Source: a virus. From it: DNA of 39,663 nt. Made by a program: the position numbers and the translations under genes. Positions within the stretch are counted from its first letter, which is position 1. Every line of letters starts with the position of its first letter. A model generated the notes under the pieces. The model searched no databases and was not told the DNA's origin. It saw nothing but the letters and a program-made list of their open reading frames with translations. Location of the stretch: UHGV virus genome UHGV-1361890; one strand, given 5' to 3'. Of this stretch, positions 35,786 to 39,564 are shown piece after piece.

Positions 35786-36190
35786 ATGGTGATTATTGAT
35801 AATCAAGCATTGATACTAGAATTTAAGAATATGATTTCTAACGGATTTATCCAAGTGTTTGTCTGGATTGTGTTAGGGGATATCTTAACAGGATTATGTA
35901 AAGGGATTTTCATTAAGGAGGGTAATAGCACAAAAGGATTGCTAGGATTGGTAAAACATCTTTTAGTGGTTTGCCTAGTAAGTATTGCTTATCCATACTT
36001 AAAAATCATGGGTCTAGAATCAATCGCTACTGGATTTGTCTTATTTTATATAGCAGTGTATGGCATTTCCATTATTGAAAACTTAGGGCAGTTAGGCGTT
36101 CCTTTTCCTTCATGGGTTAAGGAGCATTTAAGTAAATTAAAAGATGAAAATGATAAAGGTGGTGAACCTAAAGATGGTGCAAGTGATTAA
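35786..36190 (+). CDS. Holin (Phage_holin_4_1-like)
   Basis: FVWIVLGDILTGLCKGIF...LLGLVKHLLVVCLVSIAYPYL is a holin-like TM pattern. RBS GAAGGTGG before the ATG at 35786. Confidence 0.7.
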   Translation: MVIIDNQALILEFKNMISNGFIQVFVWIVLGDILTGLCKGIFIKEGNSTKGLLGLVKHLLVVCLVSIAYPYLKIMGLESIATGFVLFYIAVYGISIIENLGQLGVPFPSWVKEHLSKLKDENDKGGEPKDGASD

Positions 36191-37007
36191 TCAATCTGTT
36201 TGCGGTGGGATTGCCGGGAGACGTCCCAATGCAACGCCAAAAGGTGTTGTCATTCACAATGATGCCGGAAGTATTTATGCCACAGCTGCGCAATATGTCA
36301 ATGCCTTGGCTGTAATGTCTCCTACACAACTGGCGAATGGTTTTGCTCATTATTATATTGATCGGAATACAATTGCACGTGTAGAAGATACATTCAATGC
36401 AGCATGGCACACAGCGAATCCAGAGGGTAATTTGAACTATGTTGGCTATGAAGTATGTCAATCAATGGGTGCTAGCGATGCCGATTTTTTAGCTAATGAA
36501 CAAATGACATTTAAACAAGTTGCTGAAGATATGAAGTTTTGGGGAATGCATCCTAATAGAGATACTGTAAGATTACACAAAGAATTTGTTCCTACGGCAT
36601 GTCCTCACCGTTCGTGGGAATTGCATGGAAAAGAAACAAATGCCGTAAAAGACTATTTTATTAGCCAAATAAAAAAATATATGGGCAATCCAAACGAAGG
36701 CAATGGCAATTCAAATAATAACAATCAAAATAATATAAAAGGTGGAGAAACGACTATGCAATGTTTATACGAAAGACCAATTAATTCAAAGACGGGTAAA
36801 CTAGAATGGAATGGAGATGCTTGGACGGTAATGTTTTGTAACGGAGTGAATACAAGACGTGTGTCTCATCCGGATGAAATGAAAGTCATTGAGGACCTAT
36901 ACAAGAGAAACAACGGAAAAGATATTCCTTTCTACGGACAAGATAAATGGAACAAAAACGCTCCTTGGTATAATCGCTTAGAAGCTATGTTTCCAGTCGT
37001 GAAATAA
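36174..37007 (+). CDS. Endolysin: N-acetylmuramoyl-L-alanine amidase (Amidase_2/PGRP fold) with a C-terminal cell-wall-binding domain
   Basis: VVIHNDAGS and HKEFVPTACPHRS parallel the IFVHCSAT and HHEVAPKACPSF blocks of T7 lysozyme. RBS AAGGTGGTGA before the ATG at 36174. Confidence 0.85.
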   Translation: MVQVINQSVCGGIAGRRPNATPKGVVIHNDAGSIYATAAQYVNALAVMSPTQLANGFAHYYIDRNTIARVEDTFNAAWHTANPEGNLNYVGYEVCQSMGASDADFLANEQMTFKQVAEDMKFWGMHPNRDTVRLHKEFVPTACPHRSWELHGKETNAVKDYFISQIKKYMGNPNEGNGNSNNNNQNNIKGGETTMQCLYERPINSKTGKLEWNGDAWTVMFCNGVNTRRVSHPDEMKVIEDLYKRNNGKDIPFYGQDKWNKNAPWYNRLEAMFPVVK

Positions 37008-37066
37008 AGTATAGTAAAATATTTATAGATAGTGTAAAATAATAACACACTTATTAAATTTCTCTT

Positions 37067-37095: not shown

Positions 37096-37169
37096 GTACC
37101 CTTAGCTCAGTTGGTTAGAGCAGACGGCTCATAACCGTCCGGTCGTAGGTTCGAGTCCTACAGGGTACA
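37096..37169 (+). tRNA. tRNA with anticodon CAT (Met elongator or lysidine-Ile2; not the initiator because pair 1:72 is G:C)
   Basis: I folded the cloverleaf by hand. Acceptor GTACCCT/AGGGTAC. D arm GCTC-AGTTGGTTA-GAGC. Anticodon arm GACGG-CTCATAA-CCGTC. T arm GTAGG-TTCGAGT-CCTAC. Discriminator A. 74 nt, with no encoded CCA. Confidence 0.8.
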
Positions 37170-37177
37170 TAGAAGAG

Positions 37178-37210
37178 CCCCCTTACTCTTCTGAGTAGGG
37201 GGTATTTTTT
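37178..37210 (+). terminator. Rho-independent terminator after the tRNA
   Basis: Stem CCCCCTTACTC/GAGTAGGGGG with a one-base bulge and loop TTCT, followed by TATTTTTTATT. It overlaps the last codons of the convergent minus-strand ORF. Confidence 0.6.
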
Positions 37211-37485
37211 ATTCTGGTATACAGTGTTTTTATAGATTCAGCTACAACGGGATATTCTAGCTCGTCTAATTCATCTAAAGAAAAGTAATTTATTAAGCCC
37301 ATAACCTTAGCACCTAAAATTGAAGATTCATCTAAGTCTACAATTAGATAAATATGATCTGTACATTGAATATAGTCAACATTTCCATATGATTTATTGT
37401 AAAATGTAAGATAATCATACCCAATATTATACTCTACTGAAAGAGATGCATCAGCGAGAAAATCTTTATAAAGAATTTTGTACAT
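37183..37485 (-). CDS. Unknown-function protein C (100 aa), third gene of the three-gene operon
   Basis: RBS GGGAGGTG 6 nt before the ATG. The start lies 20 nt inside the end of gene B, which indicates translational coupling. Confidence 0.55.
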   Translation of the reverse strand: MYKILYKDFLADASLSVEYNIGYDYLTFYNKSYGNVDYIQCTDHIYLIVDLDESSILGAKVMGLINYFSLDELDELEYPVVAESIKTLYTRIKNTPYSEE

Positions 37486-38023
37486 AATGCACCTCCCTAC
37501 TCATGAAATCTTCACTCATCTTACTTTGTACGAAGCATGTAACCATCTCTTGATAATTCCAAGTTGATCTGTCTTTAATATCAATAGAAATTTCAGGATT
37601 ATTTACTTCTGTAACTATTTTAACATGTTTCATTTTAAATTGCCCATTATTTTTTATCATCGCACTTCCTAAATAATTAAGACGGACATTACTATCTGAA
37701 AAATCCTTGTCTTCAACTATCAGAGTGGGAGTAGCTATAACACTTACTATCTGACCAAAATTAAATTCATCATTATAAAAAATTCTATCTGGATGGTCTT
37801 TAATTACATGTTCGTTCCACGTACTTTCTTTCAAAACTACTCTATGTCCCAAAGGGTTTATAGTTTCAAATTTAAAATGATCAATAGCTGGCTTATTATT
37901 AAAATTGATGTTCACAGTTTCGATTGTAGGTGGAGAGGCAACTACTATCTTTGGAGCGATGAGTGAAGTAGTATCAGTAGTTTCTATAATATCTTCAATA
38001 TCTTCTTTTCTACAGTCAGTCAT
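37466..38023 (-). CDS. Unknown-function protein B (about 185 aa), middle gene; possible PD-(D/E)xK-like nuclease
   Basis: ATG at 38023 with an RBS AGGTGA. The ORF track starts at the GTG at 38032. The motif ...KESTWNEHVIKDHPDRIFY...(27 aa)...TLIVEDKDF has a PD ... hydrophobic-strand-EDK spacing. Confidence 0.55.
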   Translation of the reverse strand: MTDCRKEDIEDIIETTDTTSLIAPKIVVASPPTIETVNINFNNKPAIDHFKFETINPLGHRVVLKESTWNEHVIKDHPDRIFYNDEFNFGQIVSVIATPTLIVEDKDFSDSNVRLNYLGSAMIKNNGQFKMKHVKIVTEVNNPEISIDIKDRSTWNYQEMVTCFVQSKMSEDFMSREVHYVQNSL

Positions 38024-38032
38024 TGTAATCAC

Positions 38033-38443
38033 CTATTCAATTGCTTTTGCTTTAGAAAAGAATAATGGAGATGAACAAATTTCGATATCATCTACATATA
38101 AAAATAAATCGAATCTTCCAAGGTGGTCAATTTGAATAGAGCCTAATCCAATGTTAGCATTCATTGAAAAAATGGTATTAGGATCATCCAGATTATTATG
38201 ACTTGAGAATTGAGCAGGGATAGTTTCATTTATTATGGTTCTATTTACTGTGTTACTTTTTAAAACCAAAGACAAAGAATGATTTTTTTCAGGATCAATC
38301 CCAGAGACATTAAATAGCAATGCTAAATTATGAAAAGTAGGAGTGCTTAACACAGAGAAGCTATTTGTTGGATTAGTTATAAAATATCCATTTCCTTGAG
38401 GATCTGGGGTAACGTTTTGTGCTATAATCATATTGCCGTACAT
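38033..38443 (-). CDS. Unknown-function protein A (136 aa), first gene of the operon
   Basis: ATG preceded by AAAAAGGAGTTTTAAT. Its stop abuts the start of gene B. Rich in N/S/T, probably all-beta. Confidence 0.55.
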   Translation of the reverse strand: MYGNMIIAQNVTPDPQGNGYFITNPTNSFSVLSTPTFHNLALLFNVSGIDPEKNHSLSLVLKSNTVNRTIINETIPAQFSSHNNLDDPNTIFSMNANIGLGSIQIDHLGRFDLFLYVDDIEICSSPLFFSKAKAIE

Positions 38444-38471
38444 ATTAAAACTCCTTTTTAAATTTTACTTT

Positions 38472-38501
38472 ATTATACTTAGTAAATGAAAAGTAACGCA
38501 A
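38472..38501 (-). promoter_or_regulatory. Sigma-70-type promoter for the three-gene operon (minus strand: TTGCGT-18 nt-TATAAT)
   Basis: Reverse complement of plus 38472-38477 (ATTATA) and 38496-38501 (ACGCAA). The inferred +1 lies about 25 nt upstream of the RBS of gene A. Confidence 0.45.
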
Positions 38502-38748
38502 GAGGAACTAATGTTTGTATAAATAAAATGGATTAACAATTTTATGATATAAAGGGAGCTTCGTGATATGATTGGAGTATAGTTGTCCTTTCAGTGCTTC
38601 AAACTCAATCATAACTTTAGTTTGCCTTTTTTCGAACATACATAAGCGAAACACATTATTTTAAAAAAAATGATATGGCACAATCTTAACTGATAATTTA
38701 AGATGAATGTAGTCAGAGTTTTTTGGTTTAATCTTCCTTCAAAGGAGC

Positions 38749-38772: not shown

Positions 38773-38846
38773 GTACCTTTAGCTCAGTTGGTTAGAGCCA
38801 ATCGCTCATAACGGTTAGGCCACAGGTTCGAGTCCTGTATGGTCCA
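38773..38846 (+). tRNA. Degenerate tRNA-like copy (CAT anticodon) with two acceptor-stem mismatches; a likely pseudo-tRNA or diverged duplicate of the tRNA at 37096
   Basis: The D arm, anticodon arm (AATCG-CTCATAA-CGGTT, one G.U pair) and T arm (ACAGG-TTCGAGT-CCTGT) all fold. The acceptor GTACCTT/ATGGTCC has T2:C71 and T6:T67 mismatches. Confidence 0.4.
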
Positions 38847-38853
38847 TAGTTAA

Positions 38854-38894
38854 ACACCTACCTCTTTTTCTTATGAGAGATAGGTGTTTTTTTG
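38854..38894 (+). terminator. Rho-independent terminator after the tRNA-like copy
   Basis: 12-bp stem ACACCTACCTCT/AGAGATAGGTGT with one mismatch and a 10-nt loop, followed by TTTTTTTG. Confidence 0.55.
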
Positions 38895-38913: not shown

Positions 38914-38942
38914 TTGAAAAATAGAACAAACGTTCGTATAAT
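38914..38942 (+). promoter_or_regulatory. Near-consensus sigma-70 promoter TTGAAA-17 nt-TATAAT
   Basis: -35 at 38914-38919 and -10 at 38937-38942. RBS AGGAGAG at 38952-38958 upstream of the ATG at 38967. Confidence 0.55.
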
Positions 38943-38966
38943 GTTTCTGATAGGAGAGTGTATCAG

Positions 38967-39452
38967 ATGGTGAGACGAACTAAAAAAGAGTTTAAACCTT
39001 ACAATGATTATGTTGACCGTCCTTTTGAATTAAAGTGGCCAACGGCGTTTCCGTTGGGCGAATTGACTGAAGCAATAAAGAGTACTGATGAATATCATGC
39101 TCGCAATATTGATAGACTGCCGCAGCAATCACAGCGACAAATAGAATATTTTTTAGATCGCTCTATTAAGCAAAATAAAGTTTTAGAAATCCAATTAAAT
39201 TCTTTAGATGAATATGAACGAGTTAAGCCCCACGTTTTCGGTGTATTTCGTGGAATGGCAGAATTTGATGTTGTATTGATTGGAGAAAACGAGGTCGATT
39301 TTTATGATATTAGAAACATTCAGATTCATAACTTCACGAAATGGAGCGAAGAGCATATACCTGAAGAAAATCCATTTGAAGAAGAAACAGAACGTTGCGA
39401 AACTATAGATGAATTTGTGGACGAATATTTCGATGATGAGTGGATAGAATAA
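38967..39452 (+). CDS. Stand-alone hypothetical protein with a highly acidic C-terminus (about 161 aa)
   Basis: It has its own consensus promoter and a strong terminator. The C-terminus is EENPFEEETERCETIDEFVDEYFDDEWIE. The ORF track starts at the GTG at 38958. Confidence 0.55.
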   Translation: MVRRTKKEFKPYNDYVDRPFELKWPTAFPLGELTEAIKSTDEYHARNIDRLPQQSQRQIEYFLDRSIKQNKVLEIQLNSLDEYERVKPHVFGVFRGMAEFDVVLIGENEVDFYDIRNIQIHNFTKWSEEHIPEENPFEEETERCETIDEFVDEYFDDEWIE

Positions 39453-39462
39453 TTAAAAACGT

Positions 39463-39503
39463 AAAAGCTCTACTTCTCAATCATGGTGAGTAGAGCTTTT
39501 TTG
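39463..39503 (+). terminator. Rho-independent terminator
   Basis: Perfect stem AAAAGCTCTACT/AGTAGAGCTTTT with a 14-nt loop, followed by TTTTG. Confidence 0.65.
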
Positions 39504-39525
39504 TTTATTCGGTATAATTTATATA

Positions 39526-39539
39526 TCTATTCGCTTGCC
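39526..39539. promoter_or_regulatory. GC-rich motif, copy 3 of 3 (TCTATTCGCTTGCC, the reverse complement of GGCAAGCGAATAGA)
   Basis: An exact 14-mer reverse-complement match to 1325-1338. It lies 12 bp from the putative attR core. Confidence 0.4.
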
Positions 39540-39551
39540 TTTTTTATTTTT

Positions 39552-39564
39552 TTGATGTAGATTT
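39552..39564. repeat. Putative attR core, 13-bp exact direct repeat TTGATGTAGATTT
   Basis: Identical to 105-117 in the same orientation. The flanking bases differ (A/G on the left copy, T/T on the right copy). Confidence 0.4.

Follow-up and report, generated by a model that had tools for sequence, protein, structure and literature searches.

A conserved three-gene cargo operon of Enterococcus prophages carrying a predicted PBECR2-like RNase gene, a candidate tripartite toxin-antitoxin-like module

What is encoded by three tightly coupled genes that lie behind the lysin gene of an Enterococcus prophage, on the strand opposite to the late genes? We addressed this question in the virus genome UHGV-1361890, whose full 39,663 nucleotides are referred to here as the window. 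The window corresponds approximately to a single Enterococcus prophage, with a minus-strand integrase gene and plus-strand late genes that end at an Amidase_2 lysin gene, and the three genes, termed A, B, and C, follow near its right end. An earlier note, made from the letters of the window, had described them as an operon of unknown function and as a candidate new defence or toxin-immunity cassette. Comparison with related loci indicated that the trio is a conserved and mobile unit, the middle gene of which very probably encodes a protein of the BECR/PBECR2 type. From its sequence and synteny, the cassette can be read as a lysogen-expressed tripartite toxin-antitoxin-like module with B as RNase effector, C as antidote, and A as accessory or sensor component, a reading to which we give an even chance of being correct.

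Three minus-strand open reading frames (ORFs) of the lengths given earlier (136, about 185, and 100 amino acids) were present (Table 1). The abutment of the A stop codon and the B start codon that had been described applies to the GTG reading of B (TAG-GTG) and not to its likelier ATG start, which lies 9 nt past the stop of A. Four of the five full-length orthologues (P0002 to P0005) and most NCBI gene calls begin with MTDC, that is, at the ATG at position 38023 (P0001 reads VITMTDC), and B more probably comprises the 185 residues encoded from there. The AGGTGA ribosome-binding site (RBS) belonging to this start spans the TAG stop codon of A, and the ATG of gene A is preceded, at a distance of 7 nt, by an AAGGAG RBS. 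The 20-nt overlap between B and C with an internal RBS proved to be real, with GGAGGTG situated within B. In all lineages, including the remote ones described below, the RBS (GGGAG or GGAGG) and the ATG of the downstream gene fall within the codons for a conserved (E)GR-x-x-Y motif of B. Embedding the start of C in B in this way implies a fixed-stoichiometry arrangement, as is typical of toxin-antidote pairs. All three genes have been under purifying selection, with pairwise ratios of nonsynonymous to synonymous substitution rates (dN/dS) of 0.14 to 0.34 at dS values of 0.5 to 1.6.

The promoter that had been proposed for the cassette, TTGCGT-18-TATAAT, was found on the minus strand at 38501-38472. 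Its limited agreement with the −35 consensus explains why a consensus scan did not list it. The TTG of the −35 element, the 18-nt spacing, and the TATAAT hexamer were nevertheless invariant in the window and in loci L011, L012, and L014, although the cassette DNA of these lineages is only 73 to 79% identical; outside the window the −35 element reads TTGTTT. Upstream of and overlapping the −35 element, the 23-nt box TATACAAACATTAGTTCCTCTTG was 100% identical in four lineages and thus exceeded the conservation of the coding DNA, which suggests a candidate operator or UP-like element through which some factor might regulate the operon.

At the other end, a hairpin covers the last codons and the stop codon of C and, read on the plus strand, forms an intrinsic terminator with a T-run. 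Similarity between the window and the loci of other species begins exactly at this hairpin (position 37179), which is the apparent downstream limit of the cassette. In L011, L013, and L014, a second copy of the hairpin precedes the promoter. These bracketing hairpins are direct copies of the form CCTACTC-NNNN-GAGTAAGG (L011, 3446-3464 and 4822-4840; L013, 2578-2596 and 4822-4840; L014, 1285-1303). The downstream copy encodes the final residues of C (TPYSEE before the stop), and the upstream copy of L011 follows a mini-ORF that ends in APYSNE before its stop, as if a 3' end had been duplicated. The upstream copy of the window (~38545-38580) is degenerate. The hairpins may act as recombination linkers for the exchange of cargo.

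An exact look-up of B located the identical A-B-C trio in at least five unrelated Enterococcus chromosomal neighbourhoods. The sites were always adjacent to a lysin gene, yet the lysins (Amidase_2 or GH25-LysM) and the tail modules differed, while the trio DNA itself was 96 to 98% identical to the window. Near-identical trio DNA next to differing lysins and tail modules indicates that the trio moves as a module. More distant but intact trios occurred in an Enterococcus casseliflavus genome (L011), in two IMG/VR viral contigs (L012 and L013), and in a metagenome contig (L014); in all four, the 20-nt overlap was kept and a convergent lysin gene lay alongside, without any tRNA gene. Co-occurrence of the three genes in other phages and prophages, on which the earlier note had made its proposal depend, therefore extends down to 57% identity of B, the lowest value among intact trios (L014). 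In cluster look-ups, the cassette proteins were found in E. faecalis, E. faecium, E. gallinarum, E. lactis, E. casseliflavus, and E. innesii, in each case annotated as hypothetical. The B family was found only in phages and prophages: tblastn searches with A and B family members matched a single one of 50,697 phage records, that of Staphylococcus phage phiSP119-2, and neither family had a match among 72,556 plasmids. On about 25 E. faecium contigs, B gene calls were truncated at the N terminus (P0063, 122 amino acids; P0064, 128 amino acids), which may reflect 5' disruption of the putative toxin gene in some strains.

The B family is rare, comprising six 90% clusters among 5.8 billion proteins, and a profile search yielded 29 representatives among 1.84 billion proteins. 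Pfam PBECR2 (PF18810) was matched by 17 of 33 family members, in one register and over almost the entire profile (positions ~16-119 of 120; best E value 2.4e-7), and a few also touched PBECR3 or, in four cases, MuF_C. Twelve remote relatives have PBECR2 matches that stay under the gathering score (17.5 to 26.8 bits), and a profile built exclusively from these 12 scored window B with 92 bits (E 1e-24) over residues 51-183; the preceding ~50 residues form a variable acidic N-terminal extension. Conserved positions within the family are T71, H75, H80, R83, P102, D108, R117, Y120, E142, T165, R179, and Y183. H75 is present in all 33 sequences, H80 in 32, and R117, Y120, and T165 in 31 each, with one serine at position 165. 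In the published description, the PBECR active site combines a His that is invariant and lies close to the N terminus of the conserved core with a Thr or Ser towards the C terminus (Iyer et al. 2017, PMC5512222). H75 and T165 fit this pattern, with the limitation that their placement on the helix and the terminal strand was not modelled confidently. The set of residues listed as invariant (H75, H80, P102, R117, Y120, T165, and Y183), together with the PBECR2 matches of about half of the family, points to a BECR-fold RNase with predicted metal-independent activity, B being a divergent solo PBECR2-like protein. A profile search of the B family against PDB sequences gave nothing above noise.

Conservation of the B-C pair beyond the intact trios was seen in three remote loci; additional searches, made with subgroup alignments or with individual remote proteins, were mostly without matches. 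L016, a viral contig, encodes a DUF3467 protein (E 3e-10), a PBECR2-like protein (26.8 bits), and a DUF2283 protein (26.7 bits, above threshold) next to a convergent M15 lysin gene. The metagenome contig L017 carries a DUF6941-like gene (25.3 bits), a PBECR2-like gene, and a DUF2283 gene (24.1 bits, above threshold) together with a LysM lysin gene. L018, from phiSP119-2, has the order DUF3467-like, PBECR2-like (23.6 bits), and DUF2283-like (21.9 bits); its first protein matched the DUF3467 protein of L016 in BLASTP (E 7e-8), and the trio is located in the region after the lysin on the circular map, next to the lysogeny and early control region. Flanking tRNA genes were not found with any of the remote B relatives. 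Because the B-C pair is kept in these loci, a PBECR2-like gene followed by a DUF2283-like gene constitutes the invariant core of the cassette. The first gene, on the other hand, alternates between DUF6941 (window family and L017) and DUF3467 (L016 and L018), which have no detectable sequence similarity to each other, and this pattern fits a swappable accessory component.

The assignment of C was made through the same remote loci. Neither C nor its four orthologues matched DUF2283 (PF10049, gathering score 23) even at E values up to 10, and direct scans of C against Pfam, NCBIfam, PHROG, and PADLOC gave no family. When the C family was aligned by hhalign with the DUF2283 genes that follow the remote B homologues, E values of 4e-4, 2e-3, and 2e-4 were obtained (probabilities 14 to 46%), all in the same register and covering residues 15-75 of C. 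Conversely, a profile of the remote DUF2283 proteins had C as its sole match among the 203 ORFs of the window (E 8e-4). Judged from these comparisons, C appears to be a divergent DUF2283-like protein, with the domain at about residues 15-70 and an acidic tail of 30 to 35 residues. Nothing above noise was retrieved for the C family in a profile search against PDB sequences. DUF2283 has been linked to FseA, a regulator of an integrative and conjugative element, and to the antiactivator QseM (PMC4755241), which offers a weak lead only. A frequent pairing of DUF2283 genes with genes for DUF4258 (BECR) toxins found no confirmation in the literature searched and is given no weight here.

Protein A of the window matched DUF6941 (PF22091) with 21 bits (E 4.5e-4; profile positions 4-122 of 125), below the gathering score of 27. 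An orthologue with 69% identity (P0014) reached 32.1 bits, and precomputed PF22091 matches were available for P0010, P0013, and P0014, so that A is, through its orthologues, assigned to the DUF6941 family. It also matched phrog_5881 (E 1.8e-8). Structure prediction gave a nine-strand immunoglobulin-like (Ig-like) beta-sandwich (predicted local distance difference test [pLDDT] score 64; predicted template modeling [pTM] score 0.61), a fold that we assign to A with moderate confidence. A role as SecB-like chaperone, as in toxin-antitoxin-chaperone (TAC) systems, was ruled out on the grounds of this model. An hhalign comparison of A with DUF3467 was not significant (probability 6%), and profile searches against PDB sequences gave nothing above noise for the A family, nor did the DUF3467 protein retrieve anything there. 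The previous statement that no domain could be recognised in any of the three proteins consequently had to be revised, since A is assigned to DUF6941, B is PBECR2-like, and C is DUF2283-like.

With respect to the genomic setting, the 13-bp direct repeat TTGATGTAGATTT, one copy of which adjoins the integrase gene while the other lies just beyond the last ORF of the window, was equalled in only 5 of 2000 shuffles. Owing to this rarity it is likely to be the core of the attachment (att) sites, and the candidate attR places the trio, both neighbouring tRNA genes, and the ORF at 38958-39452 likely within the prophage. The notion of a discrete operon in a slot between lysin and attR, with a promoter of its own, was borne out by the coupling of the genes, the conserved promoter, and a prophage end beyond the trio. 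In nucleotide comparisons of E. faecalis prophages, similarity to the window broke at 37017, after the stop codon of the lysin gene; at 37159/37174, the end of the first tRNA gene, in phages EFC-1 and 1_EfsPF36, both of which lack the trio; at 38854, the end of the second tRNA gene; and at 39451-39504, where DNA shared with trio-bearing prophages at other chromosomal sites stops. The exact coincidence of breakpoints with the lysin stop codon and the 3' ends of both tRNA genes suggests that the tRNA genes are module boundaries in cargo shuffling.

In phage EFC-1 (L001, 4592-5434), a gene annotated with a TIR domain occupies the slot after the same lysin gene and the same tRNA gene and is read in the direction opposite to that of the late genes. 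With such a gene in this position, the slot has the appearance of a hotspot at which phages of this group carry candidate defence cargo. One trio-bearing prophage was integrated beside the transfer-messenger RNA gene ssrA (L004, 5980-6343), showing that the cassette is carried by phages with differing integration sites. The ORF at 38958-39452 represents a separate cargo gene; it has a near-consensus promoter (TTGAAA-17-TATAAT, 38914-38942) and is common to prophages at three other chromosomal sites, with other small ORFs instead in L007, L009, and L010. The Enterococcus small RNA RefA9 was matched weakly in Rfam immediately on the inner side of the candidate attR (39464-39534, minus strand; 31 bits, gathering score 49; E 0.037).

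The elements flanking the operon had been taken for two copies of a tRNA-like element of about 75 bp. They are real tRNA(CAT) genes, and since they are only ~81% identical and differ by compensatory changes in the anticodon and T stems, they represent two different genes instead of copies. We ruled out that the tRNAs are parts of the system: there is no flanking tRNA gene at the trios of other species or with the remote relatives, and the first tRNA gene also follows the lysin gene in the trio-less phages EFC-1 and 1_EfsPF36. Homologues of this first tRNA gene are annotated as tRNA-Met in some phage records and as tRNA-Ile in another, and it may encode tRNA-Ile(CAU). The second has two acceptor-stem mismatches (T2·C71 and T6·T67) and may be a decaying or hybrid tRNA.

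Table 1. Coordinates of the cassette and of other features of the window
Feature	Position	Strand	Remarks
Gene A	38033-38443	minus	136 aa; DUF6941 family (through orthologues); pI 4.9
Gene B	37466-38032	minus	188 aa from GTG at 38032; 185 aa from ATG at 38023
Gene C	37183-37485	minus	100 aa; overlaps B by 20 nt; pI 4.3
−35 element TTGCGT	38496-38501	minus	Read from sequence; 3 of 6 positions equal TTGACA
−10 element TATAAT	38472-38477	minus	Read from sequence; 18 nt downstream of −35 element
Conserved box TATACAAACATTAGTTCCTCTTG	38499-38521	minus	23 nt; upstream of and overlapping −35 element
Hairpin CCCCTTACTC-TTCT-GAGTAGGGGG	37179-37202		Terminator scan; last codons and stop of C on minus strand
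Lysin gene, Amidase_2	36144-37007	plus	Convergent with A-B-C
tRNA(CAT) gene 1	37096-37169	plus	ARAGORN; Rfam 71 bits (gathering score 29)
tRNA(CAT) gene 2	38773-38846	plus	ARAGORN; Rfam 54 bits (gathering score 29)
Separate cargo gene	38958-39452	plus	164 aa; no family match; likely within prophage
Integrase gene	124-1305	minus	
Candidate attL core TTGATGTAGATTT	105-117	plus	Adjoins integrase gene; 13-bp direct repeat with 39552-39564
Candidate attR core TTGATGTAGATTT	39552-39564	plus	Just beyond last ORF of window

How could such a cassette function? In our preferred reading, it would be an autonomous operon that temperate Enterococcus phages carry as cargo (a "moron"). B would be the effector, a solo PBECR2-type, colicin-D-like BECR endoribonuclease that acts independently of metal through a His/Thr active site (with contributions of Arg and Tyr). 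The small acidic protein C would bind and neutralise B. With the RBS and start codon of C inside the conserved C-terminal motif of B, translation of C is tied to that of B; that the two genes form a toxin-antidote pair appears probable to us. A would be an accessory protein, most plausibly a protein-binding sensor or adaptor (or a modulator) that can be exchanged for a DUF3467 protein. The operon has a putative sigma-70-type promoter of its own, is co-directional with the integrase gene, and, as described before, is convergent with the late genes (trio on the minus strand, lysin gene on the plus strand), to which it runs antisense. From this orientation and the separate promoter, we infer that the operon would be active in lysogens. 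If B were then set free, for instance through shut-off or titration of C or A by a superinfecting phage, cellular RNA (tRNA or mRNA) would be cleaved, so that the infection would be aborted or superinfection excluded, which is the outcome we prefer, or the prophage would be stabilised. An anti-phage role of the cassette is conceivable but, in our estimate, falls somewhat short of an even chance. The suggestion of a defence or toxin-immunity cassette has remained credible, and no PADLOC model matched the trio.

Several observations weigh against this reading. Window B itself had no Pfam match at E values up to 1, and scans of NCBIfam, PHROG, and PADLOC gave no family for it either; its link to PBECR2 is transitive, via relatives, most of which score just under the PBECR2 gathering score of 27.1 bits (26.8 bits for the L016 homologue, 15 to 24 bits for others). 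The AlphaFold2 model of B, for which the alignment consisted of 7 close sequences, was unusable (pLDDT 35, pTM 0.28). B is acidic (pI 5.1), as are all three cassette proteins. The DUF2283 assignment of C combines weak profile matches (E values of about 1e-3 to 1e-4) with synteny, and domain scans revealed no DNA-binding antitoxin domain (HTH, RHH, AbrB, or Phd) in A or C. None of A, B, C, and the partner proteins matched a model of PADLOC-DB v2, and the 33 B relatives gave nothing beyond scattered single marginal matches. Finally, PBECR domains were first proposed as offensive, virion-delivered phage effectors and not as defence toxins (PMC5512222).

This last point leads to a different interpretation, in which B degrades host mRNA or defence RNAs (e.g., CRISPR RNAs) early after infection or upon induction, and C and A either inhibit it to control its timing or determine its specificity. 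Roles of this kind were proposed for phage PBECR RNases by Iyer et al. 2017 (PMC5512222). Early transcription is possible because, in the circular form of the phage genome, the cassette follows the integrase and lysogeny genes in the same orientation, and the phiSP119-2 trio likewise adjoins the lysogeny and early control region. However, the effectors of that study owe their proposed delivery with the virion to fusion with MuF, portal, or polyvalent proteins, whereas B is a solo protein. The conserved promoter of sigma-70 type and a slot used for lysogenic-conversion or defence genes, such as the TIR-annotated gene in EFC-1, also speak against an offensive module, and a translationally locked dedicated partner is commoner where a cell has to be protected from its own constitutively made toxin. 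We consider this alternative unlikely. Much the same holds for a pure addiction or stabilisation toxin-antitoxin system that penalises loss of the prophage or the cargo region and has no anti-phage role, to which we attach a similarly low probability. It would have the same toxin-antidote architecture, and a mobile, hairpin-bracketed module spreading among prophages is in line with it, as are the truncated B calls in E. faecium, given that occasional inactivation of the toxin would be expected. Simple addiction would nevertheless have no need for a third component that is DUF6941 in some lineages and DUF3467 in others, and the lysin-adjacent slot, with a TIR-annotated gene at this place in a related phage, hints at defence.

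Less probable still is that B is a BECR derivative that binds RNA or protein but has no catalytic activity, a role proposed for the C-terminal domain of phage Mu MuF; the trio would then be a regulatory or structural accessory without a toxin. The acidic nature of B, the four family members that touch the MuF_C model, and a family in which no member has a known structure or activity would agree with this idea; the His, Arg, Tyr, and Thr residues expected of active BECR RNases, however, have been kept with few exceptions or none, although identity within the family has fallen to 21 to 37%. The PD-(D/E)xK nuclease arrangement that the earlier note had seen in B, and with it a restriction-like defence by a DNA nuclease, can hardly be maintained: window B does contain HPD...(LIV)EDK, but the motif residues are not conserved (position 82 is D in 14, E in 10, and another residue in 9 of 33 sequences; position 107 is mostly K, E, D, S, or R; position 109 is K in only 21 of 33), the family matches PBECR2 and PBECR3, and there was no PD-(D/E)xK match in Pfam.

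The tripartite toxin-antitoxin-like reading can be taken one step further, in a version that we regard as speculative and improbable in its full form. The trio might represent an unrecognised tripartite abortive-infection family in prophages of Bacillota, with B as a colicin-D-like anticodon or tRNA nuclease, C as the DUF2283 antidote that restrains it, and the first protein setting B free upon recognition of a component of the invading phage. Swapping the first gene (Ig-like DUF6941 or DUF3467) would then re-target the system, and in E. faecalis the bracketing tRNA(CAT) genes might supply a replacement or resistant tRNA.

In the literature searched, we found no biochemical characterisation of PBECR domains, a single paper that mentions PBECR2, no mention of DUF6941, mentions of DUF2283 and DUF3467 on unrelated topics only, and nothing directly relevant on abortive-infection systems of Enterococcus prophages in this slot. 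Together with the PADLOC result, this makes the three-gene architecture with DUF2283 and DUF6941 or DUF3467 partners appear undescribed. Provided that B is an active RNase kept in check by C, the cassette would for the first time place a solo PBECR domain, from a family that has so far been a computational prediction only, in a functional context. It would likewise yield the first functions for DUF6941, for DUF3467, and, in this setting, for DUF2283. The exchangeable first gene would be a natural experiment on how trigger specificity is gained in tripartite toxin systems. Since the cassette occurs in the clinical species E. faecalis, E. faecium, E. gallinarum, E. lactis, and E. casseliflavus, it may also bear on phage therapy, the host range of which is affected by prophage-borne exclusion systems there. 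Should it merely be an addiction module, it would add one more toxin-antitoxin variant.

Among known systems, the PBECR2 proteins (PMC5512222) resemble B in being phage encoded, in the near full-length match of 17 of 33 family members, and in the His and Thr/Ser active-site residues, and solo PBECR versions are known from phages (PMC5512222). B differs from the PBECR proteins described there by its ~50-residue acidic extension, by the lack of a fusion to MuF, portal, or polyvalent proteins, and by falling below Pfam detection in the window; in addition, its gene belongs to a cargo operon on the lysogeny side and has two dedicated partners there, a context that is absent from that paper. The TIR-annotated moron of EFC-1 shares with the trio the slot after the same lysin gene and the same tRNA gene, the orientation opposite to the late genes, and its exchange as cargo, but the trio proteins are unrelated to it, and a defence role of the trio would be suggested by position only. 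Tripartite toxin-antitoxin systems include TAC, omega-epsilon-zeta, PaaR-PaaA-ParE, and retron-type systems. With these, the cassette has in common a putative toxin-antidote core and a third, lineage-variable gene in one operon; it deviates from them in that A, Ig-like according to its model, is neither a SecB-like chaperone nor a DNA-binding regulator, and in its order of accessory, toxin, and antidote genes. Type II toxin-antitoxin systems with BECR toxins (RelE/ParE superfamily, DUF4258/Ntox49, colicin-D-like; Gerdes 2025, PMC11980606; preprint on BECR classification, 10.64898/2026.08.28.747851) differ from the cassette in that the latter has three genes and a DUF2283-like partner in which no antitoxin domain of the HTH, RHH, or Phd type was detected, and its toxin role is predicted from sequence. 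Like them, it couples a gene for an RNase-type putative toxin to one for a small acidic partner, is borne by a mobile element, and is under purifying selection, and the adjacency and translational coupling that characterise these systems are seen in B and C of all lineages, with a 20-nt overlap and the RBS of the downstream gene inside B.

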